The position numbers and the translations under genes were made by a program. Source: Sporopachydermia quercuum (lineage: Eukaryota). Taken from it: a stretch of 64,000 nt of DNA. The notes under the pieces were generated by a model that was given only the letters and a program-made list of their open reading frames with translations, made no database searches and was not told the DNA's origin. This document shows, in pieces, positions 10,610-60,770 of the stretch. The first letter of the stretch is position 1, and every line of letters starts with the position of its first letter. The DNA is taken from contig BCGN01000003.1 of the NCBI GenBank assembly GCA_001599295.1, positions 1,550,001-1,614,000 of the forward strand, given 5' to 3'.

Positions 10610-11330
10610 TCAATCAGTCTTTTTATCTGATACTATTCCAGATTTGTCATTCAACTCATCAGAGACTTTCTCATATTCTTTAGAAAGACCTTCAGCTTGC
10701 TTCTTCAAAGCAGTAATATCTTTATCCTTCTTTTCTAACTTCGCCTTGAGTTCATTAACAATATCTGATTCAGCTACTGTAGCAGCACTTGTAGAAGCGG
10801 ATGAAGACTTTTTCAATTGGTCTTTCAACTCCATGACTTGATTCAAAAGAGTATACAATCTGTTTAGGATTAAGCTCAAAAACAAGGTGAATCCACACAA
10901 GTACATATTTCTTTGAGCATAAAATTTTCTGGCTTGAAGTTCTGACCTATCACTTCCAACAAACATAGTGGAGGAGTTCCTAGATTGGTCTTGAGAGTTT
11001 TGATCCATTGGACTTGTCTTGTATACTCTATTGACAGAGTCAACAAATAACAATAATATAAACCCAAGAAGGAACTTCAGACCTATTTGAACTTCAGTTG
11101 ATCTGAATGAAACGTTAACTGTTTTTATGATTGTTCTGCGAACAGCATTGGGTAAAGGCAATGATAACGCCACAACAAATGCCATCTCAGCAATAAGGAT
11201 GAAAAACACCTGTAGAATGCGGTTAGACTCTGACTCCAGCTTGTTATTTCTTCCATCATGTCTACGCCAATCAATTATCAAATGTTAAAAACAACACTTA
11301 AGTACTTACCAATGAATAATATAAAGTCAT
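10610..11330 (-). CDS. YET3: BAP31-family ER membrane protein (Yet3-like), 2 exons
   Basis: Exon 1 11330-11310 (MTLYYSL); intron 11309-11210 (GTAAGT..GTCTAAC..CAG); exon 2 VFFILIAEM...RKFYAQRNMYLCGFTLFL, coiled coil, C-terminal KKTD (KKxx). Confidence 0.88.
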
Positions 11331-12002
11331 TCTGCTTTATTGTTTCTCCTAATCAGTATGTATCAATATCAATTATCTAACAAATATACTCAAGTCTAAT
11401 TGATCTGATAACTTCAGCCACTCAATCGTATTTAGTTGATTCCTTTGAAGATTCCTTTGAAAAGTTATGACATAAACAAATAAAAGTGCCTCGCAATTGC
11501 CAGATATCAAAAGAATTAATCGAACACTTGACTTGTCAGGAAAAGAATGAGAAGGGCACCCTAAGTACTACAATAAAGATAATTCTAGTATGTAAGTTGT
11601 TTTAGGAAGGCGATGATGTAGTCAGTAATTAACAGAAAGCTTAATTGCTATGTCACTACCAGAAAAGGAACAGGTTATGGGCAGGTATGATAATTACTTC
11701 TTCAAAAATAATTTCTTGACTTCCATATTCATTAATCTTCCTTCGGTTAAATTCGAAGAACAGGGGAGAAAACTAATTCTGTTCTGGTGGGCGACTGATT
11801 GGTGGATCAATTGTCACTTCTACGCACAATTAAAGATCGCACAATCTCTCAGTAAAGACTATGCATCTAGATGAAACAGGCAAAGTAACTAAGTACCTTT
11901 CTTCGCGTTGAAAGCCGATATATTATGTACGATCAAACTTTATGCTTGGACAATAACGGAAATAATACAAATGGAGAACAATACAAAGGAGCAATTAAGT
12001 AA

Positions 12003-12264
12003 GGATTACATAATCGGAAAACAGAAAGTGGGTTGATATTTAGTTTCACTCACTATGGTATGCACGAAATCTGCACAATTTTCTTGAACCTTAAAGAAAC
12101 CAGAATTTATCATTTGTATGGGTTTCTTAACCTTTTCTTTCAAACCTGGTTCTTAAAGTTAAGATTCTCTGCACAATTCTGCGAAATTGATGCATATGCA
12201 ATGCATACCATAGTAAGTGAAACTAAATCTCAACTCACTTTTTTGTTTGCCGATTATGTAATCC
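12003..12264. mobile_element. Non-autonomous MITE, PIF/Harbinger (Tourist)-like
   Basis: ~62-bp imperfect terminal inverted repeats (12003-12064 vs 12202-12264), GGATTACATAATCGG...CCGATTATGTAATCC, flanked by direct TAA at 12000-12002 and 12265-12267; no coding capacity. Confidence 0.72.
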
Positions 12265-13471
12265 TAACTTTCTAAATCTAGCCCAGATCAGATTTTTTTT
12301 TTTCAAGGGGACCCTTGCAAATTTTGCTGATCTCAAGCAAAATTTGATGGCCGTTTATTCGATTATTAAACAATAAAGATCTTTTTCAGATCAAATTTGG
12401 TACCAAAATGGGAGATTCTCAAGTTTTATATAGTTTTCTATGGCATACGAAAATACTGCTTATGGTAAAAGCAACCTAACAATATTACCTTTTACGGAAG
12501 TAATATTGATTGATATTCCTCAATCTATGCTTTCTCATTTAAATGTGATTATACTACCCACCACAATACGTTTGACAAATGAATACTCTCTATAGAACAG
12601 TGATGTGATGTTTTTTATTATATTCCTCAACTAATAGTGTATATTGAAGTAAAGGCTGCTATAGATTTCTTGCTGCGTTTCTTCTTGTTCCAGTAGCCCA
12701 GTAGCCCATTCTATTTCATTCTATATGACTCTCCTTGTAGACAATCTCGAGAGGTTCGCATTTTTCGTACCAAATACAAAGATTGATAGATATCCTATGC
12801 AATTCCAGCATACTCCTTTGCCGTTACTACGACTTAACATACACACATCTATGAGTACTGACATCTTTAAGATGTCTTCTCTCAATACATCCTACCCCCA
12901 AAGCCACACCCTATCAAGCAACTTCGAAATCTACAATTCTCAACCCTCGGCTTTCAATTCTTCCATAATAAGCCAAAATATCTTATCTTCACCCAATTTT
13001 AGTCCCCATCCTTTCTGATCCAACAGTTAATCATCAACTTCCTTTCATTGTATCGTCAACCATCATCATAGATCCAAATAAACTTCAGACTAATTTCCAG
13101 TTATTTGCATAAACGTAAACCTTATTCGAAGAAATAATCAAACTCATTGAATGGCAAACTGCTTTGAAAACTTAATGAAAATGATCGACTTTCTCAAAAA
13201 TTGATTAAAAGCATATCAAAATACATAAATAGGTTAGTTCCGTTTATAAATTTATGACACCAGGTTTTGTTTGAAAAGAATCANCGTTTCTTCGAAATCA
13301 AGGATCGAAAATATCCACTTATCGCACCATACAAATGGTTGATGAATAGTATAGCATCTCCAAGTAATTGATTGTATGGTACATGGAGGAAAAAGACATT
13401 TGATTAATTGCAATACGACAGTATTGCAATTAAAATTATGATTGAACGGCAAGTAGGAAAGATAGTTCAAT

Positions 13472-16400
13472 ATGTCTTTTTCTTCTCGTAAGACTAGAAC
13501 TAAATCTCGTGGTAATAATAGTAATAGCTCGAGAGCTACTTATGGGCAATTGGATCCGGTTTATAAGGATATGATGAGAGATTACCTTGTTGAAGAGAAA
13601 AACAAGTCTGGGANTGAAAGGCCATTGAAACGGAAACAACGGAAACGTGGAACTGATAGAACTGATAAAGACGAACATGCTGTCATCGAAATCGATAGTG
13701 ATAGTGATAAGAGTGGCAGAAGTGCTAACACGGTCAAACAACAACGGCAGAACAACAAACTAAGCAATCGTGAAGACGAATCAAACGGTTCAGTTTCTAA
13801 TACTAAAAATATAACTTACCTGTCAAGTGATGAAGCTGGTGATGCTGATGTTGCTGTTGTTACTGATAGAATCAAAAGGAGCAGGAAGAACAACGATACT
13901 AACATCAATAACACTANTAATATCAGCGTAGACTCGGCTTTTACTACTCCAGTTTCTCCCACCTTTTCTGCTTCTTCTGAATCCTTTGATGATGATGATT
14001 TCGAAGACGTGACTATCGATTCTGATAATCTCCCCCTGAGATCAACTTCTGCTACTCCTACGACTACTCCTATCCCTAACTCTTGGTTAAGTACATCTAC
14101 CTCTACGTCGGATGATTTGAATATATCGTTTGAGCCTGCAACTCCACTAAGCCAACAGAAAAAACCTTCAAAACAAGTAATTATCTCCAAAGAGGANCGG
14201 GAGTTCAGGACTAAATTCCATATGCTATCTTTGCTAGCACAACTAGCTCATGGCTATATACGGAACAAATGGTTGAATGATTTCGAGATAAGAAAAGCCT
14301 TAAAACGGTATATAACTACTGGTTTAAAGCAGGAGCTGTATCCTTCGGATCAGCTTGGAAATCACTTAAAAAATAGAAAATTCCTTGATGGTGTTCGCCA
14401 TGCTATGCATGAATGGAACTCCCATTTCAACCTAGCATCAAAGCAAGCGACAATCTTCTGCAGAACCTGGCCGGAGATTGAAATGAAGTGTAAACTAAGG
14501 AGAAAAGACGCAATGACCTTAAAAAGGTTCAGGCGGCAAATTATTAATCGGAGGGGCTCCTTGGAAATAGGAGCTCAAGGATTCTGTGCTTTTCTCAGAG
14601 CTCTTGATTTAGATGCTAGACTAATTCTCTCGCTACAACCGCCTGATATAACGTCTTTTGCTGTGGGTAAGAAGGCTAGTAATATGAATGAAAACACTAG
14701 TAATGAGTTGGATAATCCAGCCTTCCAGCGGTCTGGTGTCCCATTGGTTCTCACCGACACTTACCCCGTTTATTGGGTCGAAGTGTACAATCCGTATTCC
14801 AAAAGCTGGGTAACTGTAGATCCGATGGTTCAGAAGATAGTAGAAATTGTCGGGAAGAAATCCAAGCTTGAGCCGCCGCAATCGGATGTTCGGAATATTT
14901 TGCGGTACGTTATTGCGTATGATAGCTGTTACTATTGCCGAGATGTCACTCGGAGATATGCCCATGCTATGAACAGTAAGACTCGGAAGCGGAGAATCAC
15001 CCGAGATGAGACCGGCGATAAATGGTGGGATCGCGTGATTGGCAGCTTAGCACCTAAATTTGCTTCCGAGCGGGAAATAGCCGAAGATTCCGAAATGTTG
15101 AAACGGCATTTGGCGGAGGGAATGCCTTCAAATGTCCAGGACTTCAAGAATCATCCCGTGTACGCTTTAGAACGCCATTTGCATAAAAATCAAGTGATCT
15201 ATCCGAAAGCAAGATGCGGAACGCTGAGAATCAAAGGAACAAAAGGTACTCCCGATTCCGTGATTTCAGTATATAAACGGCAGGATGTTCATACGCTACG
15301 CTCGGCCCGCGCTTGGTATCAGAGAGGTAGGATAATAAAAATGGGAGAACGATGTTTACTTACTGTTAAACATATAAGTTTAGGTAATCAAATAAAACGG
15401 ACCGGAGATACCAATCCCGGTTCAGATCTAGAAGAGCTATTCCAAGACCGAGAAGAAGGGGACGATGTTCGGCTATACGGCGAATTTCAAACCGAACTTT
15501 ACATTCCGCCTGAAGTAATCAACGGAATAATCACAAAAAACGGCTACGATAACATTGATGTTTATGTACCAAGTATGATTCCCAAAGGAGCCGTTCATAT
15601 TCGGAAAAAGAATGCCGAGGAGGCAGCAAAACTGGTCGGAGTTGACTACGCCAAAGCTGTCGTTGGCTTCGATTATAACAAACGGAACGCTAACCCGAAA
15701 ATTGAAGGTGTGGTAGTAGCGGAAGAGTTTGCCGAGGCTGTCGAAGCTGTTTCCGATGCTTTGTATCAGCAACGTCGGGAAGAATTTCGGGACAACCTAG
15801 AATTGAAGCTGTTTATGATGTGGAAAACGCTATTAACGAAAATGACCATTCAGCAGAGGCTTGAAGCCCAGCATGGAGCTGTCGATGATTTGGACAATGA
15901 GGGAGCAGCAAAAACTGTGAAAACAGTAGGAACGGGAGATCGAAGCCTCAGAAGAGCTAAAAGTAAGGAAGCGTATAATGAAGATGAGGAATTTGACTCG
16001 TACGATGAGAATTCGTATATAAGCGATCATGAAAGCAATGGAGAGTTCAGTGATGAGTTTGCCCATGAATATGGTGATAGCGATGACGATGACGATGATG
16101 AGTTTGCAGGAGGATTTCTACTTGGGGATGCGATTGAAGTTGACGAGATGCCAATGAAGTCTGTTGAAAGAGATGATGGTTTGCATGTGGCTGGAGCTGA
16201 TGGGACTGATGAAGTTCCAGAAAAAGGAAAATCTGTACTGAAAAAAGGAATTGTGGCTAAAGACAATGACGACGACGACAACGAACTGGGTGGGTTTATA
16301 CCTGAAAAGGGTAATGGTTCTGAAGCAGAAGGCATTGTCCCTGAAAAGGATAGCGGTTCCGAGTACGATGGTGGCATTTTAACAAATCCAGAGATATTAT

Positions 16401-16960
16401 CCGAATCAGGAGAAGATCTCATCTCCAACTCCAACTACAATTCCGGTAATCTCTTACCAGAAACAGCTATTTCCTCTCCCAAATCAGGACCCCATCTTAC
16501 GAAAAACTCATCCAACCGCTCATCTTCGGCTCCTATGACGTACCTTGAAACTTCGGATGAATCACCAACTGAGTCCCTCACTGATTCTGATGAAGATCCA
16601 AATTTCAAATACACCGCGAAATTATCAACCGTTCGGCCTAATTTCAATACCCGAGGAAAGTCTCAGCAACGTAGTCTAAAATACGAATTAGTGGTGAAAC
16701 CCAATGAGGATGGTCCTGGTGCTGAAAATGATAATCGTGTTTCTACTTTTGGTATCAATAACAGTAACATTCCAAAAGATACTGCAACTTTAGCTAAACG
16801 AGAACAAAAGTCACCGGAAGAGGAAATACCCGGTGATCTCTCCGGGTATTCTGGTGAAGAAGAGGAAGAAAACCAAGAAAACGAAAATAAAAGTGTGATA
16901 GAAACAGGAAAACAAGAGGACGAAGATGATTTTGATTTCGAATACAGCGATGACGAATAA
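13472..16960 (+). CDS. RAD4: DNA damage recognition protein Rad4/XPC
   Basis: Transglutaminase-like core (AQGFCAFLRAL, YWVEVY, RDVTRRYA), BHD domains (FKNHPVYALERHL, LRSARAWY, KNGYDNIDVYVPSMIPKG), N-terminal acidic DDFEDV motif. Confidence 0.95.
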   Translation: MSFSSRKTRTKSRGNNSNSSRATYGQLDPVYKDMMRDYLVEEKNKSGXERPLKRKQRKRGTDRTDKDEHAVIEIDSDSDKSGRSANTVKQQRQNNKLSNREDESNGSVSNTKNITYLSSDEAGDADVAVVTDRIKRSRKNNDTNINNTXNISVDSAFTTPVSPTFSASSESFDDDDFEDVTIDSDNLPLRSTSATPTTTPIPNSWLSTSTSTSDDLNISFEPATPLSQQKKPSKQVIISKEXREFRTKFHMLSLLAQLAHGYIRNKWLNDFEIRKALKRYITTGLKQELYPSDQLGNHLKNRKFLDGVRHAMHEWNSHFNLASKQATIFCRTWPEIEMKCKLRRKDAMTLKRFRRQIINRRGSLEIGAQGFCAFLRALDLDARLILSLQPPDITSFAVGKKASNMNENTSNELDNPAFQRSGVPLVLTDTYPVYWVEVYNPYSKSWVTVDPMVQKIVEIVGKKSKLEPPQSDVRNILRYVIAYDSCYYCRDVTRRYAHAMNSKTRKRRITRDETGDKWWDRVIGSLAPKFASEREIAEDSEMLKRHLAEGMPSNVQDFKNHPVYALERHLHKNQVIYPKARCGTLRIKGTKGTPDSVISVYKRQDVHTLRSARAWYQRGRIIKMGERCLLTVKHISLGNQIKRTGDTNPGSDLEELFQDREEGDDVRLYGEFQTELYIPPEVINGIITKNGYDNIDVYVPSMIPKGAVHIRKKNAEEAAKLVGVDYAKAVVGFDYNKRNANPKIEGVVVAEEFAEAVEAVSDALYQQRREEFRDNLELKLFMMWKTLLTKMTIQQRLEAQHGAVDDLDNEGAAKTVKTVGTGDRSLRRAKSKEAYNEDEEFDSYDENSYISDHESNGEFSDEFAHEYGDSDDDDDDEFAGGFLLGDAIEVDEMPMKSVERDDGLHVAGADGTDEVPEKGKSVLKKGIVAKDNDDDDNELGGFIPEKGNGSEAEGIVPEKDSGSEYDGGILTNPEILSESGEDLISNSNYNSGNLLPETAISSPKSGPHLTKNSSNRSSSAPMTYLETSDESPTESLTDSDEDPNFKYTAKLSTVRPNFNTRGKSQQRSLKYELVVKPNEDGPGAENDNRVSTFGINNSNIPKDTATLAKREQKSPEEEIPGDLSGYSGEEEEENQENENKSVIETGKQEDEDDFDFEYSDDE

Positions 16961-33508: not shown

Positions 33509-35674
33509 TCACCAAACATCTTCTTGATAATAATTCTTGGTTTTCAGAGATCTGACAAACTCATGAGCTTTCTCCTCAGAACAGTTCTTGGTCTCAGCAA
33601 CGATAGTAGCTAATGAATTGGAGACATCTCTGGCCATTCTGCTCGCATCACCACATACATAGAAATAACCGTCATTGGATAAGATCAAATCGCCAATAAG
33701 CTTCTTATTTTCTTCTTCGAGCATTTTATCTTGGACATATACTTTCTTATCACCAACTCTTGAAAAAGCAGTAATAAATGTAAACTTGTCCCCAAGAATC
33801 TTCTTATAATCTTCCCATTCTTTAGAATAAAGGAAATCTGATACAGGGTCTCTGCAACCAAAGAACAAAACAATTCGGCCAATGTCAATGCCTTGTTCAA
33901 CTTGACAGCACTTCTCACGAACAAAAGCTCTGAAAGGCGCTACACCAGTACCAGGACCAACCATAACAACAGGCTTCTTTGGATTACGGGGCAACTTGAA
34001 AGTAGATCTTCTAATATGAACGGGCAATTTGTAAGTATTATCGCCATTGGAGAAATAGTCTCTAGGACCTGATAAGTCATAAACAATTGAAGGGTCAGTT
34101 GGGCTACTATGAGTTTCATTATGGATGTTGAGTAAAAGATTAGTAGTAACTCCTTTAAAGGTATAGTTATCAGATGCAAATTCAGAGGATTCAACAACAG
34201 CTGTAACGTGAATAGTATCCTTCTCCTTAGCTGATGAAGAAGAAATTGAGTAATATCTTGGTTGTAAATGAGCAATGTATTCAACTAAGAAGTTGAAAGG
34301 AACCTTTGTCCATTGTACGCCATCTGAGATCTTTGATAGAGCTTCAGTTAAGTTGTACAGCTTTGAAACAATTGCTTCCTGGAACTTGTCCTTGTCACCG
34401 CCAAGGTTCAAACAGGTTTCTTTAGCTTCAGGAGTTGGGGCAAAAGGAGCAATTAATAATAAAAACTGTCTAGAAACGGGTCCATTGATTTCGAGGTAGT
34501 GTCTTGCGATGGTGTCATAAGTAGTAGGGCTATGAGGCAATTGAGAATTGCCAGTAGAATCCTTGGATTTCAATTGAATAATAGTATCCTTTTCGTCAAG
34601 TAGACCAAATATTGATAAAAACTTTTCAACATGATCGTTTGAATTGGAAGGCCAAACAGCAATATGATCACCAGTACTATATTTGATTTTATCACCGCCT
34701 GTTTCAAATTCAACGTGGACACAGTGTCTGGTTTCATCGTTGAACAATTCTTCAGTCTTAACGATAGTAGCCAAGTAAGGATTAGTATGATCAAAAGGAC
34801 CATTTGACTCACCATTACCAGCTTTAAGGTACTTTTCGTTTGGTTCCCCATAATAAACAGTGTTAGCATCAACAGATTCAGTATCAAGCTTAACAATATC
34901 AATACTTGGTTCGTATTCAACCTCTTTTTCAGTCAAATTGAGCTTTTCCTTGATTGCAGAGAAAACTTCATCTTTCCATGAAAGATAATCTTCGTCCATG
35001 GTTCCAGTACCATCATCACCTTCACCATAGCTACCAATTCTTTGAGCACCAAGCTTTGAGAGAAATTCATCAGTTTTCCTTCCCATGGCATTATAGAACT
35101 CATAAGTAGAATTTCCTAAGCCAAAAACAACATAATTCAACTTGCTTAAAGGCAGGTTATCTTCAGAATAATCAGCAAAAGTCTCGCCATTCTTGAACGT
35201 AAGATCATCAATATTAGAGAATAGTTCATAGAAACCCATGGCATTGTCAGTTGGTTCACCTTCTCCGTAAGTAGCCATAATAAATGCCAAGATCTTATCA
35301 GATCCATCAAATTCGTTTAGATTATCATAATCAAAATCATCCAAATCAGCAATCATAGAATTTAATCCAAGTCTTTGAGATGCTTCTTTAGAGAATCTTG
35401 AAGCATACTCTTCAGCTGTACCAGTTTGAGATCCATAGAATACAATCATATCCTTACCGGCTGATTCAAATTTAGAAACGATGCTCCTTTCATCTTCATC
35501 ACCCCCTGACGAAGTGGCGGCTTCGTTTTTGTCCTTAGCTTTGCCCCATAATGTTCCCTTGGTGAAATATAAAAGGGTTGTCAAAAGGATAATAGCTAAA
35601 ATGGTCAAATCAGCTGAATCCAGTTCCGATGATTTGGTCTCACTTAAAGGAGGTTCCTCTATAATTTCTGGCAT
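33509..35674 (-). CDS. NCP1: NADPH-cytochrome P450 reductase
   Basis: N-terminal membrane anchor; FMN motifs YGSQTGTAE, ATYGEGEPTDNA, FGLGNSTYE; RYYSISSS, GPGTGVAPFRAF, YQEDVW; first ATG at 35674. Confidence 0.97.
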   Translation of the reverse strand: MPEIIEEPPLSETKSSELDSADLTILAIILLTTLLYFTKGTLWGKAKDKNEAATSSGGDEDERSIVSKFESAGKDMIVFYGSQTGTAEEYASRFSKEASQRLGLNSMIADLDDFDYDNLNEFDGSDKILAFIMATYGEGEPTDNAMGFYELFSNIDDLTFKNGETFADYSEDNLPLSKLNYVVFGLGNSTYEFYNAMGRKTDEFLSKLGAQRIGSYGEGDDGTGTMDEDYLSWKDEVFSAIKEKLNLTEKEVEYEPSIDIVKLDTESVDANTVYYGEPNEKYLKAGNGESNGPFDHTNPYLATIVKTEELFNDETRHCVHVEFETGGDKIKYSTGDHIAVWPSNSNDHVEKFLSIFGLLDEKDTIIQLKSKDSTGNSQLPHSPTTYDTIARHYLEINGPVSRQFLLLIAPFAPTPEAKETCLNLGGDKDKFQEAIVSKLYNLTEALSKISDGVQWTKVPFNFLVEYIAHLQPRYYSISSSSAKEKDTIHVTAVVESSEFASDNYTFKGVTTNLLLNIHNETHSSPTDPSIVYDLSGPRDYFSNGDNTYKLPVHIRRSTFKLPRNPKKPVVMVGPGTGVAPFRAFVREKCCQVEQGIDIGRIVLFFGCRDPVSDFLYSKEWEDYKKILGDKFTFITAFSRVGDKKVYVQDKMLEEENKKLIGDLILSNDGYFYVCGDASRMARDVSNSLATIVAETKNCSEEKAHEFVRSLKTKNYYQEDVW

Positions 35675-35940
35675 AGTGAATAGGAGCAAAAATGTAGTGA
35701 ATACCTCCGATTGAATGTTGCTTTTCTTTTTCTTCAGCTCCGACTTACCGAACGCGTGATTCGCAGCTGCTTTTCCTGTTCATGTATGTATATAGACAAT
35801 GCAATACAGAAAAGGATCTGAACAGATGGTGACAACGATGAATACGATGATAATATATCAATTAGTATTGCATTAAGTACTAACTAATTGATTTCTCTAT
35901 ATTTCTACAACGTCTATACTAATTGACATACCACAATTGC

Positions 35941-36443
35941 TCGTTTAACAACTATCCAAATATTCCACTAGTTTCTGTCTTTGATGATCTTCCGCTATCA
36001 TCGGTCGGATCTTGTTGTCATTAAATAAGGAGTTAAGAGCTCGTTCTCCCACTTTGCATTGACGCGGGGCTTTCGATTCGGGAAGGGGAAAGTTTCACTG
36101 TCCGGAATTGTTGTCCGATATTGTCTGTAGATTATCGGCTGGTGTTACCCCCAACGTCTTGAATAGGTAAACGACAGGGTGGTAAGAGGGACCAAATGCA
36201 AACGTGTTATGGGACAGGAAGGAATTAACTGAAACGGAAAGAGGTGGAGCAGAAATAATCGAATCAGTGGGTTGAGTAGTGCGAGGACTGGCTGTCAAGG
36301 GTTGCTGAAGAAAAGAAGCATAATTTTGGGTCTGAGTTGGGGAAGATTTCTGGAACAATGAATTCTGCTTACAATTGAAAGAATTATATAACTCTACTGT
36401 TTTCCCAAGTCTTCAATTGATGATTCATCAGAATTATCGTATA
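35941..36443. promoter_or_regulatory. Sterol regulatory elements (Upc2/Ecm22-type) upstream of NCP1
   Basis: TCGTTTA at 35941-35947, TAAACGA at 36168-36174, TCGTATA at 36437-36443. Confidence 0.45.
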
Positions 36444-37876
36444 GGCAGTTATATGTCATACAGACGGTAGGAGGAGACCTGATGGCAAATGTAACTGAAT
36501 TCAGGAAGATTGAATCAGGTAATAAATTCCTTATTGACTTGGCTTGCCCGTCTTATGTCAATTGACTAAGGTTGGCAGATAAGAAAAAAAGGAATGGAAG
36601 ATATCATTCCATAGATGATTCAAAATGAATAAGANGGTTTCAAAGGAAATCAAACCCGTAGAAGATACAACTTGACATTTTTGTTAAAAAAGATCTCCGG
36701 CTTTTAGAAATATTCGACATATGGCAGCTTCGCTTCATAATGTCAATAAAGCTCAAGCTAATAAAATCGACCCACTATAGTCTGCACAATTATGTCGGAC
36801 AGGAGATCATGGCATACGATAGTTCCGACATTAGCTTCCAGTTATGACTTTTATCATGGTTAGGGTGCGAGAGAAGATAGTAAGAGAAGGAGGGTTTATA
36901 TTACAAAAACTAATAGATAACATAATTAGAACCGTTGAAATTTGGAGAATATGCTAACTGCGGGACAATTTAATCCTTGCAGGGATTTACGACTTCTAAC
37001 TCAATCCTATTATGTGGCTAGCGAAAGCTTATCGGCACTTTTGTTCCAGACAGACCAATGCATCGGGTAAGGAAAAGGCCTCCACAATGCGTAAAAGAAA
37101 TGAATCAAGTAANAGAGTTTGTCAAAGGAGTTGACAGTTGATTTTTTTCATCGGTAAATGCTGTAGTCCAAAAGGCAAAAGGTATGTTAATTTGATGAGT
37201 ACATTATTATTTTTGCTTGACTTGTTTCTACNTTGATTTTTTGACGGGAGTAATCTTCACGTATGGTTGCACTTGGTATTGCATATGAAGTGAAAAATAC
37301 ATGACTCTGGTTCACATAAAGAACATAAAGAAAGATTTCTGATACAACAAGTAGAAGCAATTTCGCGAACGAGTAAAATTATTTAGAATAAATATAAATA
37401 GTATAATATTTATTCAACTACATAGAAGTAGCATAGCATAGTGAATATTCTATTTCATTCATGATGAATATGCCATGAAATTACGTTTTAGATATGAATT
37501 AGGACCCTGCCAATTTTCCGATGAATCATGTTGCTCATCCGAAGGNAGTAACGGGTATATGAAAATGAGCAAAAANTCATGTTCGTTAAATACACAATTA
37601 ATATACACCATTTGAATAATCTAATCGGATGCACATTCCGAGACCTCTAGGGTAATATCTTGCGGTTCTGTTGAAGATTCCGTCTTTCTATTAGGGTTCA
37701 TTTTGAAGCAGTGTTTCATACTCACCCTCTGGAAGAGCTGCTCTAGTAACCTCACCAGAATGGAACCTGGATTTTCTTACGACAAAAATACATGACACTA
37801 CAAGAGATGATTCACAATTATATATAGTGTTTTAACCTAATTAGACAATTCATACATTCAATGGTTATGAAATAAA

Positions 37877-39125
37877 TTAGTTCATGGCCTTGATCAAGCT
37901 GTTAATGAATTCTTCTCTGTTACCAAAGGAACCACCTTCAATGAAATGCTTGGACTTTCTTGGGACACCCCAACCACCGGATGGGTTAGACAACTTGAAT
38001 GGCCACAAGAAATTGTTAGCTTGCTTGAAGTTAGGACCAACAGTGTAGATTTCGTGGATCAAGTCTTCAATAGAAGAGATACCGTAGGCGCCTAAAGCTG
38101 CTTCAATGATAGCATTGTCGCTTAAAGGAATTCTTTGCTTGTTGACCTTACCGAAACCTCTTTTGTAGATAATTTGTCTGATGGTAGACAAGTTGGGGTA
38201 TCCATACGCAACGTAAGGTTCAACCAACTTGATCAATTCAGAGGTAGCCTTAGTAACTCTAACGAAGACACCAGTGTTGATTTGGTTGAGTCTCAATAAT
38301 TGAAGGACCTTTCTGGGCTTAGGAGCAACTTTGTTGATACCCTTGATACGGACAATGAAGACAAGTTTGGCTTCAGCAGGAACGTAGAAAGAACCGGCAG
38401 CCTTAGCTTCACGACGAGCATCAATGATAGCTCTCTCAGAGGCAGCGTACTCTTCGTAGTACTTAGCAGTACGTTCCAAAAGGGCTTTTCTCTTTTCTTG
38501 AGAAATCTAAAATATATCATGTTAATAATTTATTCAAATAGTATCTAAAGATACTGTAGTTTGGCAAGAGTTTTGATCTATTCGTTCATCGTTGACAACC
38601 GCTGTAGAACCTGTGATTAACAACACGCAAATGATCCAGGGTTATGGTTCGCTTCTTAAGAATTCAGTCCCGAAAGATGGTATAACAACAAACATCATCG
38701 TAACACTAGTTCGTAAAAGGTTTGTTATGCATCATTATACTATAGAAACGAACTTTTCCCACAAGATTCTTGTTGATAGTTTAGTTATAGACCGCATTCT
38801 CATCCATATGAACATATTTGCTGATATTAGCCTTTGCAACGTCAGATTCACTTTGTTGAAGTTATGATGGTTGAATTGGGGATTGAACTTTTCAGAAACA
38901 CTTGCACATTCTACATTTTGGAAATCATTATCGTACCTTCTTTCTTTCAGCCTTTTCAGCCTTTTGAGCTTCAGTGAGCTTGGCAACTGCTCTTTGCTTC
39001 TTTATAAGAGATTCAGGAACTGCAACGTCACTATAAACCTGTTAGTTATTCATTCTCACCAACATCATAATTTTGTTTTCAAACATTTATGTTTGGTAGT
39101 TTTTCATTCCTATAACGTACGTCAT
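37877..39125 (-). CDS. RPL7: 60S ribosomal protein uL30 (L7), 3 exons
   Basis: Exons 39125-39121 (ATGAC), 39030-38937 (T+[11 protein letters not shown]...ERKK), 38506-37877 ([12 protein letters not shown]...[10 protein letters not shown]). Intron 39120-39031: GTACGT..AACTAAC..TAG. Intron 38936-38507: GTACGA..TATTAAC..TAG. Confidence 0.96.
38661..38740 (-). ncRNA. Intronic box C/D snoRNA of the snR39/snR39B family (register fits snR39B, 25S Gm805)
   Basis: Guide ACCATCTTTCGGG (38681-38669), complementary to conserved LSU CCCGAAAGAUGGU, lies one nt before box D CTGA (38667-38664). C-like ATGATGC (38735-38729), C' ATGATGT (38698-38692), flanking 10-bp stem 38647-38656/38744-38753. Confidence 0.88.
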
Positions 39126-39491
39126 TTTGTATTAATTGATAGATCCTTGTCTGTTTCAAGAGAACAACAATGGTATGACCTAATAATGTGTTACTGATAC
39201 AACACTTTTGTCTATCTATAAAAGAAAGAAGTATTGAAAGAGAAAGGAAGTAGTAGTATCAAACTAACAGTGTGACAATCAGAGTATTGTGAGTCCCGCC
39301 TGAAAGAGCCATCCACTCACTACTACATACTCTCGAGAGTCCGCTTGGGTTTGGACTGNTTCAGAATGTGCGTCAATGTTGATTTAGTATGAAAAGTTAG
39401 TCTGATAGCAAAATTCACATTTCCACCTTAAAAAGTTACATAGGTATAGAAGTTTTAGAACCGCTGTAAATTACATACCTACTTGTCCTTA

Positions 39492-39513
39492 AGCCCTAAT
39501 ATCAAACACGTGA
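39492..39513. promoter_or_regulatory. RPL7 promoter: adjacent Tbf1 and Cbf1 sites
   Basis: AGCCCTAA at 39492-39499 and CACGTGA at 39507-39513. Confidence 0.55.
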
Positions 39514-42500
39514 TTCAATGAGGGCGAAAATTACTGTCCTTTGGTACATTATGTCCAAATATAATTGGTCTTGCGTGTCGGCGTATCTAACGATTTCATA
39601 ATGACGAAATTTGGATATGAAACAACAGCTTCTATCTGAGAATACCAATCTATTGATATCGTTCTATTATTTCTGTTACTTATGACATACAAGCTTTTAC
39701 AATAACCTCAACACATCCTTCAAAATGCCACACACATTGTAGGTTACGTCATCTTTGAATCTCACTCGCGACATTATCCTTACCACCTTCTCTATCGGAT
39801 AATCTGATTTGCACTTGAAACATGTTTTTCGGAGGTGTTGATACCATGAAGAACAATAAAGATAACTACAGTAACTATATAGTTATTCTAGTAGTTGCTG
39901 AGGGTATTTGAGCACAAATATATACTGGCAATTGAGAATGCTAGCCCTCAGTTAAACCATATGGANACCAGTGCTAAGTTAGGATTGACCTATGCCTTCA
40001 TATATCATGGTAGCGGAACACAATACTGATTGCATTGATTGTGTTGAGATCACTAGGAGATGATCAGTTTGGAAATGTACGTATGAGAATAAATTAGAAC
40101 TAGATATATTTGAACCGGAATCCAGTATCTTGTGTTTTGTGAAGTATATATACCATTTTTGTGAAGAGTGATAAAGCATCCAAAGCTCAGATTTCAAACC
40201 TCATTCATTCACCTTCACATAATGCGTCTAGAGCATCATCCATATCAGTTGGCCCACCACCAAAGATATCGTTGAATACTGTTGATGTAGATTTGTTTGA
40301 CTTGAATGAAATGTGACAACTACTTTTCCCAATCTTTATAGTCAGAGATAATACAAGCGATAATACAATCGTGCTTANTATGAGCGGTACATGGAGTATC
40401 GAACATGAGCTCCATGTATGATATCTATCTTAATTCACACAATAATAAAGCAAAGTAAAATAAGGAGTGCTTCTTGGGTAGNTGGAGAGATGAACCCGTT
40501 TAAAACTTACGATAGAAGGACTTCAGTTATGGACAAGGGGCAGCAAGTAAACTCTAAAATATCAAGACTTTACTTAATAGCAATAAGTTTAAATCGTAGA
40601 AAAGCAGTTCTTCAATGAAGAGATCTTTAGTAGATATAACTAGTGATTATTCCATTCTTCGTGATCTTCATATTGAGATGTGTAGATTTGGCAGACAATG
40701 CGTTTCATAAGTAGAAAAATAGTGGAAGCTGTACACGGTTAGGACCAATAGAGAGAAATGTTTGTAGAAGCTGAAATGAGAGCATAGATCAAGATGCATA
40801 AAAGAAACCGGAAGCGCACGGTTTACAGTGTAATAAATATTGAAGTGAATGAGCTGAAACAGTAGTTCAACTGAAAGCAATTCAATTGATAGCAGGTATC
40901 AAATTTATATTAAGGGCTAGATTTAATCGGCTAAGGTAGACGCTTTTTGGTTAAGAAAACAACGAGTATGCAATTGCATTTGGTTTAAGTCTTGTCGATT
41001 CGGTTGTACTTTTAATGAAATAGACACATGATCAAGTCATGTCAACATGGTGCCACTGAGTGTTTGTATTGTTAAAGAGACTAAGTAGCTTACATGTTAA
41101 GACCTCAACACTTCAGAATCAATAAACAAAAATGTTCTTACTAATGCTCTGCAATTAAACCAAGAGGTTTTCTATGTACGTCTAGATACGTCCTATCATC
41201 GAGAATAGACTTGTTCTTGAAACTGGAGATAATAAAGCAAGAGACAAAAGACAAGGGGAACAAGGTAAACAATAAATGAGGAGCGAAGTGCAAATTAAAA
41301 CAAACTGATAAGTTTATTTCAGTCTCTCAATTCTAATATGTCGTAGATCCAAATATTTTGTTAAGGGCCATAACAAATGTACATGAATCCATCTTGCAAA
41401 GGTTTTGAAAACTATCAAACGGCACATGAGCCAGTTAAGAGAAATGGTCATCTGGTTGAAGAATGATATTGATAATTCTCTTTGCGATAATAATCTATTG
41501 CAATAGTCTTTCTTCATTTGAGTTAAAACTGATAACAGCTGATCAGGATAATAAACACTAATTGCTGAATTGCTCTATGGAGTCAACTTTACCAGTCCAA
41601 AGGCTAAGGCTATCGATCAGATATGTTAGAACTCATTCCCCGCAAAAGATATCTACTGAAATTGAAATTTTCAGACTCCAGATGTTAAAGATCAGAGATC
41701 TTAGACATTTGACTAATAGGTTTCATCAAGCTTTTTAATTAGATATTCATGGTATGATTATTTGCNCAGTTCAACAGAAACAGTTATGATTATTTATCTG
41801 TTAGAATGTTTGATGGATTTCCCCACAGTAAAGGCTACTACAGCAAGGTTTAACTTACGTGGACTAAAAACCGAATTTCACATACCTTATATAACTTTAA
41901 CCTTCTAAATATGGTTTGAGAGCTTTCCTTCTGCTTTGAGCAACTGCAGTGAGATGAAATGACCCATCCGGAGAATAAAGGAAGATCTTGAAGTTTATCA
42001 TCTAAGTCTTAAGCAGGAAAAGTACCGATCGAGGATNCCACGATAAGTTAGGTTAGAATTGTCCTATTAGGAAAAGTCATTGCCTATTAACTTTAAAGTT
42101 GTTTGAACCTCATGCAAGTGGTTTAAAATTAGCTTTGTACAGGTTCGTAAGAACAAATTTGGGCTTGTCTGTCAAAAAAAAAGAGATACAATTTGACAAT
42201 AAAGTAAATGGAGATCAACTTTCGTCATATCAAAAGAGTAATAATATTTAAGAGAAATTTCTATGAGATCATAGTTTTCTTCTTGTTTAAATTGTGCTTT
42301 AAAACTAACTGTTTTGACAAAGTTTTAGCTGAAAGTGAAAAAAATTCTTTTCATATGCGAAGTTTAAATGTGCTGTTTATTTGCTGATCTAGTATCATAG
42401 ATTGCTCTTCTATTCATTAAAACAGAAGATAAAGCAAAGAGAGTCGAATCCAAGAGAGATGATTGATTGTTATTTGAGTGATTATTCACTTCCTATTTCT

Positions 42501-44436
42501 TTAAACTTAACAAAGGAATCATCGCTCTTGAAAGCCTATTGGAGCTGCCAGAAGAAAAGAAGGAGAGGCCAGATTCAGGTAGGCTACAGTGACTTGTACT
42601 AAATGAGAGCTGNTTGACATCCTTGATAAAAAAAAAACATCTCAACTGTAATAATTTTATAATTTTATGTTTGAATTCAAACTTTTAATGTAACATCGAC
42701 ATATACATCAAAACGGTCTGTATAAATAAATAATACAGCATAATCATACCAACGATCTCTTATCAACACCCGCTGGGGGATTCCATACAAATAAACTTTA
42801 TATCTTGCAGCATCTCTATGTAAGAAATATGCACGGGCGCTGTATCACACACATACAAAGAAAGTTTTTGTCACATTTGCGTTTTATATGGCATCTACTA
42901 TTTCAACGACCCCTCTTTCATTTAATCTTCAGAGGTATCTGAAGTTAGAAGAACATCAAAGTATTTATCTACACATTACTTAAAGATGAAATCGATCTTC
43001 ATTGCTTCAATATTTCATTATCATGTTATAATATTCGTACCCAATCACAAAGTNTAATAATTTTTAATTCACTCAACCTAACGCTTGGAACTGAGAAAAA
43101 AAAGTTCCATACCTGCACGTTGATGTCAGTCCACCGAATAGTTAGAAAAACACTCTCTACTTCAAATACGAGGGCTTTTAGATAGAAATTTCAGTACGAC
43201 GTCTTATAGGAAGAAGCGGTAACTCCTCTAACCTTCCATCGTGCCTATAACCACTGTTCTGCATGAGCCATAGAAAATATTCGCTCCAAACTGGTGATTA
43301 TTTTATCTTATGAACACTAATTACACTAAATAATAATCAAGGCCCTTACANATCCCTTTAGGGACTCACATGGTGAAGCCACTTCTGGTGTGAAGGGGCA
43401 GACCCCCATTTTCAGTCTACGCATAACCTAGGCATTAGTTACCTATCTATACACAGAAAACTAATCATCATTTCGATAAACACCGTAAATGGTGTCCAAG
43501 AATTTTCAACTAGAACTATGTACAAATCATTTATCAGACAAATAAATCATATTAAATCTTCCACCAACACCACATTTACGATCTACTTATGCCTCTGACT
43601 CACCACATTCGAAGTCCACAGTCTTTGTATGTTCCTGCATACTACATTCAATATAAGTTTTACATGTAAAAATGAAACTTTATTCCCAAGGTTTTCATCT
43701 TGTTTTATACAAAAACATCCAAATTTCCTTTTTCGCCCTACCAAAATAATTACATAATTTATTGCAAAACCAAGAAGGAACAACCTCAAACCACAAAATT
43801 GCACAGGAGGCAAAAATATACCCAACATATATACAGTCTACTTACCAAACACAGCAAACAACACAAACGATCAAGTGTTATTAAATTGAGAATACACAGA
43901 GCTTTTAATTATTTTTGTTTAATTTCAAGTTCAGTTTCTTATTGCAGGAAAGAGGAGTTTTTTTTGCTTCTATAAATCAAATAATCAACAAGNTCCAGTT
44001 GAATAGTGCCACTGGCTATCTAGTCAACAGGGGACACACATCGTATGAACATCTAGAACAGCTTTATCAAGAAGTAAAACTGAAACTATGAGATTGATTT
44101 CTCCACGATTCTTTTGTTTATGTTGAGAAATTGGAAACGAATAGCACAAGAGTTGGTACGATAGTTTAGGAGCGATTGTTCAGTTGAATGTGATCAGAAG
44201 ATTATATCGTTGTAATATCGAAAGCCTACAGATACAGTTTCAAGCTTATTAAAAGAAATCTGAAGAAGTCAAATACTGTTGTATATTCTCATTGTGCGAT
44301 AGAATCACTAACAACTTGAACTGGGGTAAGGTCGAGAAGACAACCGAGTTCTGAAAGAAACGTAGATTGATTAGCCTGTTACTGTCTCATTTGACCAGTT
44401 GATAGGATAGAAGTTACCATTCGACAGAAAGTGATA

Positions 44437-47400
44437 ATGAATGGTAATAGCATCAATAATGGAAATGGTAGTAGCAATGTTAATGGCAACTTTAATAGCT
44501 TTGTAAACCAAGGGATTTCTAATGGAAGAAGCTCCGATTCCTTACAGAGTCAACAACAGCAAATACCAATAGGTATGACAAAAGCGTTGAAAGTATCAAA
44601 AACTACCAGACAACCGAAACAAACAAATAAGAAAAAGAAGTTGAATTCTAAGCAACCACGGTCTACAATCATAATGCCGACTGCTTCTTCAAATTCAACG
44701 TCATCATCAACAACTACTTCCACACCTGCTGGATCAAATTCGAACCCGTCTCATACACAGCTGCCATCATCATCAGCATCATCAACATCAGTTACAACTC
44801 CAATTGAAGAAATAGCCCGTAATACTCAACAATCCTCTGATTTAGATAACGTGACAGGATTGCCAAATAACTATTATAACAGTTACAATTCAAAGGATCC
44901 TAACCTTAACCTAAGATTAGACGATAGCAATATTTCTCTTGCGCCTGGATATCCTGGAATGTCCACTGATGGTAATATGGGCATGCATAATATGAAGAAT
45001 GGGAATCTCGCTAATGGAATGGACTTATCTGGAGAGCGTTCAGGTTTCAATGGAGATATTGGTGCTCATGTTTCGCAACCTCTGACTCCTTTTATGCAGC
45101 AGGATGTGCCAAATGGCTTTTTCAATGACCCACCCAACTTTATAGGATCGTCACCTTTTTCCACTGTTGCTTCACCTTACAATACAGGAGCTACTCCTTT
45201 GGAAATGCAATCCGCTTATAATCCAATGATGTCTTTGGGAACTGGTAACNTTGGACCTAATGGTGTTTCCGGATCAGAGTCACTAGCTGATGTTCAAGAT
45301 TTAGCTGAGCAAAGCGCACTTCCTGTTGGAATGCTTGTATCGTCTTCAAGAGGAAATTGCTCATCGGACGTTAGCTTGAATGGGATGAATTCAAGATCTC
45401 ACTTAGCTGAGGCTGTTCCAGTATCCGTAGGAGGACCTCCAATGATTACTGGCGATGGGTCAGCATCATCAGCTGTCGCATTAGTAAATTCCAGAGATAT
45501 AATGGGACCTCCAATGGCCTCATACGGCTTGGGAGAGACCCCAGAGAACCATATTTCAGCGTTGAATTATCAAGATCAATTGGCATCAGGTGTAGGATCT
45601 ATAAACCAACAATCACAATCACTAGCTACAAATCAACCGCATCTTGTGCCTGTTCATTCTCAGACTCAATCACAGCTCACTAGATCAGCCGGAGCTGCTG
45701 GCAGTAACAACAAGAAGCCTACTAAGTCCCGGAAACCTATTGGCGGGACCAAGACGAGGCCTGCGTTTGTGATGAAACTTTGGAACATGGTAAACGACAG
45801 AGGCAACGAAGAATATATCCGTTGGATGCCGGATGGAAAGAAAATTCAAGTGGTTAACAGAGATCAGTTCGAGAAAGTCATCCTCCCGAAGTACTTTAAA
45901 CATTCGAACTTCTCCTCCTTTGTTCGCCANCTGAATATGTATGGATGGCATAAAGTCCAAGATGTAAGCTCAGGATCTTTACAAACTGGTGATGAAGTAT
46001 GGCAATTTCATTCTCCTTACTTTATCAAAGACCGTGAGGATCTCCTTGATAAAATTGTTCGTAATAAAGGATCTAAAGGCGACGAAGAAGATGAAGAAGT
46101 AGAAATATCTTGTATTATAGGAGAAATCAAGCAAATCAAGGCTAACCAAATGGCCATATGGGAAGATCTACGAAGGGTCCGTAACGACAATGAATTACTA
46201 TGGAAAGAAAACTGTATGTCGCGGGAAAGGCATAAAACGCATGAGGAGACTTTGCAAAAGATTATGCGTTTCCTCGCTTCTATGTTTGGATATCAAGGCA
46301 AGATACCCGATGCTGGAGCTCCATTATCAGCATTGACATCGTTCTACGATGGCGTAGGGTCTTCTGCAGGACTTAGTGAGAATTCAAACGAAGTCAGCGG
46401 TAGCTTGAACTCCACTAGCAATGGAACTGTTGGGGTAAATCCCAGTAGCCTGGGAAGCAATTTGATACCCCCTTCAAGTATCGCTTCAGCCTCAAACGGT
46501 ATCCATTCTACCACTGATGGAGTTAACGGTTCTTCTGATGATCACACATTTAGTGGACCATCAGGAAACATTGGACCTTTGAATAACCCTGACGGCCACA
46601 ATAGACCTTTGCTTATGCTTATGCCCAGTGAAAACAGCAACGGTAGTCACAAATATGATTCAAACCGTTTTGACGATCTTGGATCCGTTCAGGGATCAAT
46701 TAGTGGAGCGACCAATAGAAATCCAAAACTAAGCAAAGAACATATCGATGCAATGAACGATTTGTTCTCGACCTCAAGCTCATCAGCGAACCTACAATCA
46801 CGGTTTGAAGACCTGTCTTCAACACCAGGAGGATCCAACACTGGGAAATCTCCTACATCATTATTCACATCAATTAACTCACCGAAAGTTGATACAGATA
46901 TCCTTAATTCAATGAACAAGCATAGCAGCAGCAGTAACAACATCAATAATACTTACAGTAAGAACAGCACTAAATTTGGTACATCTTTTCTTAATGATAA
47001 CAATACAACCCCCACTGAGATTATGCAAACAAGTAGCACCAGCAGTGGTACTAGCAGTGGCGCAGGCAGTGGCAATAAAGGTACACTCTTTGATGATCTT
47101 GCTTTTCCTAAGGCACGAACTAACAATTTATATCTAGGGCTAAACGATAACAATACGAGTAATAGTAACTCCAAAATATCTACATCGACTACCCCTTCTT
47201 CTGTTTCCCCAACAGAAGATTCATCAGGTGGGTTGGCGTTGCAGATCCCTCCAGGTAAAGCATCTTCTGGTAGTTTTCCTTTAAGCAGTATATCTTTATC
47301 ATCCTCTGATCAGATAAGTGGAACAGGGAATAATATTAATGATAGTACTATAGATAAGATCGATAATGTTCATATTGATGATGTTACTGATAATACCCAT

Positions 47401-54237: not shown

Positions 54238-57111
54238 ATGTTCTCTTTCAAAGGCTGTAAGTATAATTTCTCGGAAAATGCTCACATTCTTGCTCGCCGC
54301 TAACATTCAATAGTTAAATCTGGTATAGCTGCCAACTATTCTTCATCTTCTCAGCCAAATTTTTACTGTGGACCTTGGGCCGTGCATACGGGAAAGAAAA
54401 GAGGATCAAGCGATGAAAAAGGAAAAGTTTCAGTGTTTGTTTTCGACAAACGGAAACTGGAAGCCTCTTTAACCAAATCAGCTCTTCCGAAATCCACGGC
54501 GGAAGACGTTTACTCTGTGCTTCGGAAACAGGTCTCCTCTTTAGCCAAACTACGTCATCCTTCTATCTTAGAGCTAATTGAACCTTTACAGGAGTCAAAA
54601 TCAACAATGACATTTGTTACAGAACAAGTGATCACCACAGGGACAATCCTTATTGAAAATAATCATAAAAACGTGCCAAAACTCCAGGGAAATTCGTCTT
54701 TTTATTCTACTGGCATTTCTTCCATCGCCAACGATAGCACATCATCTTTAGACGATAGCGGCAGCATAAATTCTACATATTCGTCCTCAAATACTACAAA
54801 ATCCTCACAATTAGACCTTGATGACCTAATAATCCAAAAGGGTTTACTCCAATTATGTACTGCCCTGGAATTTTTGCATAATAGTGCTGGAATCGTACAT
54901 CTGAACCTAACCCCATCGTCAATAGTGATAAACACCAAAGGAGACTGGAAACTCTCAGGATTGCAGTTCATTGAGACCTTCAAAGACAAACCTTCAAGCT
55001 TTGAATATTTCATTGATCAGTTTGATTCCCGGCTTCCTAATTTCGTTAATATGAACTACAATTTCACTGCTCCTGAACTGCTTATTTCTCATCAACTATC
55101 GCCATTCAATGATATCTTTGGTTTAGGCTGTTTGATTCTTGCCTTTTATACAGGATCTTCGCCAATATCCTGCGGGAACAACCTACAAGCATATAAAAGT
55201 CAAGTGTCGCGGATATTGAATCTTCCTCACTTGGAAGCAAAACTGCCGAATCATCTAAGAACTATTCTACCTTATTTATTAACCTCAGACCCTAACAATA
55301 GATGGTCAATTCAACAGTTTGAATCATCTGCTTATTTTGACAATATGCTGATAAAAGCTATCAAATTCATTGATGATTTCCCTACAAAGTCTTTGATTGA
55401 GCAGTTGACATTCATGAAAGGTCTTTCTAAACTGCTGCCTGAATTCCCAGTGCAGATTCTTACTAAGAAGATTCTTCCGACGTTAATTGATTTATCTACA
55501 ATGACACTCAACGGAGTGAACACCAATGAATATGCCAAAGTTTCTGGTGACATTTCCAAGTTGATAGGCGCAATGGTTTTGAATATATTGTTGATAGGCA
55601 AGAAGCTTTCCCAGTTGACGTTTCAGGAGCAGATTTTACCAGTTTTGAAGAAGCTAAGTCCCATTGGGATGGTGCAGATAATAATGTTTGACAAGCTTGA
55701 TATTATAGCCGATCGGCTTAACGGAAAGGATTTCAAGGATATTGTATTACCTGTTTTTGATTTGGTGGTGGGAGGTGGGCAAAGCGGAAGTCCCACTGGA
55801 AATTCCTTGCAGCCCCAAGCGGTTGGAGCTGCTCCACATTCCCCTTATCTTCCGCAAGGTGCAGAACCGGTTAATCTGTCTCAAGCTGTAATTCAGGAAA
55901 AAGCCCTTCTTGCGACANCTAAATTAACTTCTAAATTAGACTTCCCGACCTTGAAAAACGAAATCTTTCCCAAAATAGCAATCTGTTTCCAAAAGACAAC
56001 AAGTCTTTCGGTAAAAGTAGCCGCTCTTAAAGCGTTCCATGTGTTAATCTCTTGCGGGGGGATAGATAAGTTCACTATTCAAGAGAAGCTTTTACCCGTT
56101 TTGGCGGGGATGAAGACTAAGGACCAAACGGTGCTATTGGCCTGCTTGCCCGTATTTGAGATGATATCTTTACCTAATGAGAGCAAATCTACTATAGAAT
56201 TGGAGTTAGTAGCCACGACGGTTATTCCGCAGTTGTGGGGTCAACTAGTTGGCGGCACTCTTGATCACCGGGGATTTCAGTTGTTTATGAAGACGATTCG
56301 GCTCATTGAGACGCGGGTTGAGACGGAGATGTTTGAACGAGCGGGAGGAGTCGGAACTGGAATTGCGGGAGTCGGCGGAGTCGGCGGAGTCGGCGGGGTT
56401 GGCGGGGTAAGTGGTACAATAGAAAAGCCAGCATCAAACTCCACCGATCAGTTTGAAACTCTAATGACTAGTAAGAAACAATCAGCAAGCCCTCTAGCAT
56501 TTAGCAGTGTCGCCCCGGACTCCCCACAANCCGACTTTCTGGATAAACCGGCAACCCCTGTTAACCCAGTGAAAGTATCTTCGTTGAGTTTAAAGCCGAC
56601 CAGCAAAAAATCGCCATTTGATTCAGCTTTGGCTCCGAATAGAATCAGCAATAGAAGCAAAACAACGAGAGGATTTAGCAATAATAGCATGAATAATACT
56701 ACGACTATCAATTTCAACAATAGCGTTATTGATGATGATGGATTTGATGATTTCCAGAGCTCAGTAAATACAATTCCGCCTATTAGCGTTATCAATAGTG
56801 GTAGTAATACTAGTAATTCCGTTGTTAATGGGAACCCAGTTATTGACTGGACAAGCGAAATCAAGAAAAAGAGCATCACCAGTAACAATAGCAATGGCAA
56901 TAGGCATAGTGATACTAGAAATAGTATTAGTATGAATAATAATAGTATGAACTCAACCATGAATACTAATTCTAATATTGTTCTGCCTCCTGGGTTTTCA
57001 TTACAGCCATTGCAACCAACGCCTCATTCACAGCATAAGAACAATAATACTAGCAATGCCAATAATGGCGGTACTGCTAGCAATTATTCATTCTCCGGTA
57101 GCTTGATTTAA
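54238..57111 (+). CDS. SCY1: SCY1-family pseudokinase with HEAT repeats, 2 exons
   Basis: Exon 1 54238-54256 (MFSFKG+T); intron 54257-54313 (GTAAGT..CGCTAAC..TAG); exon 2 in frame with VSVFVFDK, LAKLRHPSIL, HLNLTP, GDWKLSGL. Confidence 0.9.
56341..56409 (+). repeat. 9-bp repeat (ggagtcggc) encoding GGV in SCY1
   Basis: ggagtcggcggagtcggcggagtcggcggggttggcggggta plus an upstream degenerate unit. Confidence 0.85.
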
Positions 57112-60100: not shown

Positions 60101-60770
60101 TTTATCTGAAATCTTCCTAGTAATAAAGTTTATCTTGCATTTAAACTTGCAAATCTGGTAAGTACCCCATTAACTCAATTGCCATCTCATTCATTCCAAT
60201 AGTGCATTTCACCACTTTCCTTATTACTGTTTCTTTTTGGATTTATTCCTTTATTATCAGATAAATAGGTAAACAGGCAGCTTTAGAACAGAGAATTCAA
60301 ATTAACCGCCTCAATTGACAGCGTTGCAATATATTTCTTCCAGTGTTTCGTTCCTGGAAACAGTNACACTTCAATCATTTTACCAGTGGAAGCACTCGCT
60401 ACAGTAAAAGAGATAGTAGTATGCTTTAAATTGTTTAGTTATCTATTGATACTACATTATTATTGTTGTTTAAACAAGCTCGTAGAACATTGCCAATACT
60501 TCTGCCAGTTTCTTTTTTCATTTGATACTGCNGCAGTAATCTGGTAAAGTATTCAGTTGTTCAGTATTTGACTTGCCTGTTCGAAATTCATAACAGAGCA
60601 TTCACCACTAACTAAATTGAANCACCGAGGAAAGCAATAAAGGAATTGATATTTTAATTTTTGAAGGAAACAAACCAGGCATCCAAACAGATAAAAAAGN
60701 GTCAACGTCTTCAACAAAATCTTTTCTCAGAGTTCAAAGTCTCCTTGCTCTTCATCCAATCTTCACGAGA

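Follow-up and report, generated by a model that had tools for sequence, protein, structure and literature searches.

A lone TAA-flanked hairpin between the YET and RAD4 genes of a budding yeast: a possible orphan of the PIF/Harbinger superfamily

Background

A 262-bp sequence with long terminal inverted repeats lies upstream of the RAD4 gene of Sporopachydermia quercuum. Is it a transposable element and, if so, to which superfamily does it belong? The sequence-only reading of this locus took it for a Tourist-like MITE of an undescribed, recently active PIF/Harbinger family in a budding yeast, with a transposase elsewhere in the genome. DNA transposons are scarce in budding yeasts (PMC4316626). 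In the available part of its text, a review of four model yeasts names Harbinger solely for the basidiomycete Cryptococcus (PMC7175516). According to a fungal survey, Saccharomycetes mostly have three to four superfamilies, whose names are not given in the part available (PMC5751038). All statements taken from the literature, here and below, refer to the accessible parts of the sources.

Locus and structure of the element

The window analysed here is a stretch of 64,000 nucleotides (C3:1550001-1614000) from a genome of 16.4 Mb in 15 contigs. The element sits in a 2.3-kb gap between a Bap31/YET-family gene and a divergent RAD4-family gene. No credible Pfam match was found in this gap, and the window contains no tRNA gene. 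Nearly all of the 67 N positions in the window are single and they are denser past 36 kb; none falls within the element. In a tree with 11 Saccharomycotina and 16 Pezizomycotina named relatives, the YET protein groups with Saccharomycotina (support 100/99, long branch), and thus the assignment of the host to budding yeasts holds. Elsewhere in the window, positions 35674-44437 and 57111-60771 (8.8 and 3.7 kb) are without an ATG-started ORF of 100 aa; these ORF-poor stretches contain no match to a Harbinger transposase.

The features of the locus, in window positions, are as follows.

10610..11185, minus strand: Bap31/YET-family gene; about 820 bp lie between its start codon and the element
11997..11999, plus strand: AAG flank, pairing with CTT at 12268-12270; either part of a symmetric target or, in a rival reading, outer end of the arm
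12000..12002, plus strand: left TAA, candidate target-site duplication
12003..12064, plus strand: left arm of 62 bp, candidate terminal inverted repeat, with weaker pairing up to about 12084
12004..12015, plus strand: 12-mer GATTACATAATC in the left arm, about 30-fold enriched and almost always intergenic
12065..12201, no strand: interior, no coding match; 11-bp direct repeat and weak nested inverted repeat
12202..12264, minus strand: right arm, candidate terminal inverted repeat, 63 bp
12252..12263, minus strand: second copy of the 12-mer, in the right arm
12265..12267, plus strand: right TAA, candidate target-site duplication
13472..16960, plus strand: RAD4-family gene, transcribed away from the YET gene; about 1200 bp lie between its start codon and the element

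The arms align with 57 of 63 columns identical, the differences being five substitutions and one gap. This confirms what the sequence-only reading had noticed, a 262-bp unit (12003-12264) with ends of about 62 bp, about six differences including a gap, terminal GG and CC, and TAA on both sides. Identity peaks at the termini, where the first 15 bp are identical, and declines inward; beyond the 62/63 bp, weaker pairing extends to about 83 bp. At symmetric cuts, TAA/TAA is the sole direct repeat that reaches three bases, and over the range of cuts tried none of 4-12 bases was observed. Target-site duplications are 8 bp long in hAT and 9 bp in Mutator elements, and thus a miniature element of the hAT (Rover/Roamer) or Mutator type is excluded. 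The targets of NuwaII (C|TNA|G) and of Pangu and NuwaI (ANT or CWG) do not fit either, as the site reads G-TAA-C (PMC4482050).

The element has the features of a Tourist-like MITE in that it is short, non-coding and hairpin-forming. The fold has z = -13.6 on the plus strand and -12.9 on the minus strand (0 of 200 shuffles each). In 97 stretches of its own genome, together 814,385 bases, no other inverted repeat within 3 kb scores as high as the hairpin, which has 104 bits; the next one has 73 bits. Pfam searches gave no coding match within the element, which holds neither a DDE transposase nor a Myb/SANT gene. Both internal repeats described earlier are present. The direct repeat is 11 bp long (12070-12080 and 12168-12178); the nested inverted repeat (12087-12103/12146-12160) does not exceed what chance gives (p = 0.07 and 0.12 in 2000 shuffles).

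This anatomy fits the PIF/Harbinger criteria of Han et al. 2015 (PMC4482050), and the hallmarks pointed out in the sequence-only reading, TWA flanks and G-starting ends, are there. The criteria allow terminal inverted repeats of 5-1042 bp starting with A or G. The arms start with G and, at 62/63 bp, belong to the long tail, as 93% of PIF/Harbinger repeats are under 60 bp.

Copy number

The whole element, used as a query against its own genome in a DNA search, matched only itself, and so did a single arm at E up to 10. This search scores best candidates only and thus may overlook copies with less than about 70% identity. A scan of 814 kb by nhmmer gave a best non-self E of 0.48. The first 15 bp, with at most two mismatches, had 91 matches genome-wide against 20 for the reversed control, two of them being the arms themselves. 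Neither a partner arm nor similarity past the motif was seen in 88 of the other 89, the single match left out of this count being C11:85088. An inner 20-mer had three other matches at three mismatches, against seven in the control. One near-match pair, at C1:960.2-960.3 kb, has the motif order and orientation wrong for an arm and was put down to chance.

The element is therefore single-copy in these searches rather than one of an amplified family of homogeneous copies with independent duplications. The family foreseen in the sequence-only reading is thus not supported.

In all three contig runs from the same organism the region is present letter for letter, each time in one unbroken 37.6-kb contig. 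Thus the stretch is no assembly artefact, although the runs may be the source of this DNA, and the unbroken contigs would argue against a collapsed near-identical copy. The site is filled in all three; no empty site was seen in these runs, whose contigs drop rare variants. The result, a single copy and no empty-site allele, is one of those that the sequence-only reading had named as counting against it; its second half concerns at most three samples, possibly the source of the DNA itself. A metagenome scan for the end pattern gave no matches. Relatives of the flanking YET gene were found at 29 metagenome loci, but with best segments only 35-57% alike they are too distant for a comparison of empty sites.

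A second lone hairpin was observed on the same contig at about 300.4-300.9 kb (L084:4722-5180). Its arms are about 80 bp long with 77-81% identity, and it spans about 450 bp. TA can be read on both sides, it is single-copy, and it contains a variant of the 12-mer inside, its sequence being unrelated to that of the element. It is a candidate miniature relic of the mariner/pogo type, and lone miniature relics may thus be usual in this genome.

Resident Harbinger transposons

The DDE_Tnp_4 profile (PF13359) matches three places in the genome, and the result is the same with an intact relative as the query. All three matches are broken by stops or frameshifts, and neither query detected an intact transposase in the genome. 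A DNA search with one of these fossils revealed at least six decayed copies of one two-gene family, on C1, C2, C4 and C5.

C5:1057.0-1059.7 kb: decayed Harbinger copy
C2:415.8-418.9 kb: decayed Harbinger copy
C1:136.5-139.6 kb: decayed Harbinger copy
C1:755.9-758.0 kb: further decayed copy
C4:702.4-703.0 kb: further decayed copy
C1:2478.2-2478.7 kb: further decayed copy

Segments compared pairwise between copies agree at 67-80%. TTA flanks the copy at C1:755932-757965 left and right, its ends measure about 75 bp, and the best-kept copy has G-starting ends. The one target site that could be resolved (n = 1) is not palindromic. The second gene is convergent and carries a trace of Myb_DNA-bind_3 (E 0.0034, below the cut-off, in one of 12 frames read). 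Transposition of Harbinger elements built like the hairpin studied here, with a TWA duplication and ends about 75 bp long, has occurred in this genome in the past.

An exhaustive protein search with a piece of the fossil transposase yielded 458 relatives at E <=0.001; the best is 37% identical and none reaches 1e-30, and thus no close donor is indicated. Among intact proteins, the closest are 30-41% identical across the piece used as query; the few names given include plant and truffle ones. A word-index protein search with the same piece returned no matches.

The only PF12776 match in the genome lies in a 1303-aa ORF (L147:3317-7228, C4 at about 1825.3-1829.2 kb, minus strand). It is a cross-match to a TEA/ATTS-domain host gene (Tec1/AbaA-like) and not a Harbinger helper, for whose Myb/SANT gene it could be mistaken. 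The C2 fossil holds a 1.1-kb insert (L037:5745-6885, about 417.5-418.7 kb) of 49% GC against 37% around it, in which a broken frame weakly resembles the N-terminal domain of glutathione S-transferase (E 0.055); this is possibly captured foreign DNA. Perfect palindromes of 30, 30 and 24 bp were observed at L127:9367-9396, L030:2679-2708 and L036:3260-3283, the last of which lies beyond the left end of the C5 fossil, at a distance of about 60 bp.

The ends of the fossils are not those of the element. The element arms are absent among the 40 matches, to E 50, of an nhmmer profile built from the fossil ends; the best match between element and fossils has E 5.7, and the outer 36 bp differ. Arm positions 38-59 are in register with the fossil ends (p 0.04 and 0.08; position-weight score, 20,000 random windows), a likeness that may be taken as a weak hint only. 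The arms differ from each other at 6 of 63 positions, compared with about 25% between fossil copies (p 0.002) and 12% in the best fossil end pair (p 0.36). No transposase younger than the fossils was found in the genome. Nor was a partner found that has the same ends and carries both a DDE transposase and Myb/SANT, the ends of the broken copies giving no significant match.

Thus the expectation of a transposase elsewhere in the genome holds in part: remains of DDE_Tnp_4 and Myb/SANT-like genes, a TWA duplication and long ends are present, but not with the same terminal repeat. Recent activity is not borne out, as every transposase match is broken and no empty site was seen.

A 12-mer shared by the arms

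The 91 matches mentioned above have their source in the 12-mer GATTACATAATC, which occupies positions 2-13 of each arm. In 723,925 bases with the selected centres masked, it was seen 8 times against 0.28 expected, which is about 30-fold; extrapolation from 8 in 724 kb gives roughly 180 intergenic sites genome-wide. At 52% coding, 29 of 31 sites lie outside ORFs. The half-sites GATTA and TAATC are enriched at a spacing of 2 bp only (30 two-strand counts versus 0-6 at other spacings). The middle of GATTA-NN-TAATC is mostly CA/TG, and the sites have symmetric A/T-rich flanks. In the window, the pattern occurs at positions 2176, 12004, 12252 and 27885.

TWA stands ahead of the G-plus-core at 5 of 13 sites and at 2 of 9 in the reverse orientation (p 0.65), in all at 7 of the 22 sites preceded by G. 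The possibility that TWA-flanked 12-mers are relic ends (5/13 versus 3/39, hand-counted, p 0.017 post hoc) was removed by the reverse control of 2/9. As the bias is the same in both orientations, the dispersed 12-mers are best read as host sites and not as relic ends.

The 12-mer is probably a site for a host factor. Sites of Yap-family bZIP proteins, such as the Yap8 site TGATTAATAATCA, have the same GATTA and TAATC half-sites (PMC3865217). Unlike in this Yap8 site, the half-sites here are 2 bp apart; an even-spaced site modelled in the same paper is identical to the enriched 12-mer. Plant MITEs are known to carry factor sites (PMC5950925).

Origin of the element

What do these observations say about the origin of the element? 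We consider it somewhat probable that it is an orphan, now immobile, non-autonomous miniature element of the PIF/Harbinger type. It would have been mobilized in trans by a Harbinger transposase and a Myb/SANT partner, from a family or subfamily since lost or decayed beyond detection. The two proteins would bind the two 62-83-bp ends, a TAA target in the YET-RAD4 intergenic region would be cut with a 3-base stagger, the 262-bp unit would be inserted, and repair would duplicate TAA. Sister copies would have been few and then lost without trace, which the precise excision of Tourist-type elements (PMC4561436) would allow. The only present effect is likely to be the placement of two copies of a common host 12-mer, putative factor sites, between YET and RAD4. 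The element is unproven as a transposon, is not a family and is not recently active, and the host 12-mer in its ends is not predicted by an orphan Harbinger origin.

A quite possible but less probable explanation is that promoter DNA was duplicated locally in inverted orientation. Template switching or break repair would have placed a reverse copy of about 70-90 bp of intergenic DNA, including one host-factor site, at a distance of 100-130 bp. The arms would then span 11997-12270, from AAG to CTT, and a single A/T change at the central base of the triplet would give the appearance of a TAA duplication. Such an origin predicts a single copy and no matching transposase. The alignment does continue through AAG/CTT with one mismatch, and an ordinary host word in the arms is accounted for by its distribution (29/31 outside ORFs, 8 versus 0.28 expected), while TWA before the G-plus-core is frequent in both orientations (5/13, 2/9). 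The GC content of the element (0.336) equals that of its flanks (0.340, 0.333). On the other hand, one specific transversion is required, spaced repeats of this length are rare (814 kb hold two whose arms exceed 60 bp and whose span is short), and the past activity in this genome of TWA-duplicating elements with ends of similar length is left unused.

The flanks do not decide between these two explanations. TAA on both sides is seen at one locus only, and a duplication yields the same letters, so the evidence of TAA is weaker than its appearance. In 100,000 simulated local inverted duplications, a TWA-plus-purine end arose in 0.6%, or in 1.5-1.6% if anchored on the 12-mer. Conversely, insertion without target preference would meet a symmetric AAG/CTT flank at 1.8% of TWA sites, and most of the TAA argument is thereby cancelled. 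The near-palindrome AAG-TAA-CTT, earlier taken as an extended target, fits a palindromic target and fits equally well arms that are 6 bp longer with one mismatch. Thus the costs are about the same (0.6-1.6% versus 1.8%), except in the case of a transposase with a preference for palindromic targets. For mPIF, a preference for an extended 9-bp target has been reported (PMC6327408); no paper giving a PIF target consensus was found in our literature search.

The balance is tipped towards an orphan Harbinger element by context. Firstly, this genome once had mobile elements built in the same way. Secondly, identity of the arms peaks at the termini. Finally, there is a second lone hairpin. Confidence is held back by the lack of further copies, by the ends without a match and by the host word within them.

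Other origins appear unlikely. A miniature element of another superfamily would most simply be a TA-targeting Tc1/mariner/pogo element with AGG-starting ends, one flanking TA being mutated to AA. The left side does read AAG-TA-AGG and the hairpin at C3:300.4-300.9 kb is flanked by TA, but both a mutated duplication and a chance symmetric flank are required, which makes this improbable. Slightly less credence still is due to the idea of a second Harbinger family with the 12-mer as its terminal word, of which only this element would survive whole. The family would have seeded a host regulon with its ends, or its ends would have evolved to recruit a host bZIP-like factor; this idea is disfavoured, as the dispersed sites share only the word with the arm and the TWA bias is equal in both orientations. 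The least probable candidate is a structured non-coding RNA or a hairpin selected for pairing: the fold is very stable on both strands, but any long inverted repeat gives such stability, no Rfam family matches the window at the gathering score, and the five arm substitutions (two giving G-U on the plus strand, one on the minus strand, two breaking the pair on both) favour no strand.

Comparison with known systems

The presence of Harbinger in a budding yeast is the stronger fact. It rests on the fossil copies, to which a singleton element adds little. The superfamily seems to be unreported in print for this lineage. Our literature search found no paper in which Saccharomycotina are described as having a PIF/Harbinger element or a MITE of the TWA type, although Table S1 of the partly available PMC5751038 may list matches; the accessible parts of PMC13728883, PMC5499181 and bioRxiv 10.1101/2025.06.16.659975 mention no yeast Harbinger. 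If the orphan Harbinger reading holds, there were two or more Harbinger families in this lineage, and insertion polymorphism upstream of a DNA-repair gene could readily be followed with the element as a marker.

Several MITEs are known in yeasts. mRover1 of Lachancea waltii, of the hAT superfamily, has an autonomous parent and shown insertion polymorphism (PMC4316626). CEN2-2 of Dekkera bruxellensis (PMC4999066) and the Dici1-derived MITEs of Diutina catenulata (PMC13469147) are, like mRover1 and the element, small and non-coding with terminal inverted repeats. The duplications of these three are 8 bp, 5 bp or TA, with 5 or 51 copies where counted, and as described in the available text none is of the TWA/Harbinger type, unlike the element.

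The Tourist-like MITEs mPIF of maize and mPing of rice share with the element G-starting ends, a size of 200-430 bp and the lack of coding capacity, and their TAA/TTA duplication has a candidate counterpart in its TAA flanks (PMC6327408, PMC4561436). They have many copies and arms of 14-19 bp, whereas the element has one copy and arms of 62-83 bp; and, in contrast to Tourist-like MITEs and PIF/Pong/Harbinger elements, the searches made here detected no autonomous partner that shares its ends. From the fossil Harbinger family resident in its own genome, the element differs in the outer 36 bp, in the lack of a significant alignment and in the broken state of the fossil copies. It resembles that family in the candidate TWA duplication, in the long ends and, as regards the best-kept copy, in the initial G.
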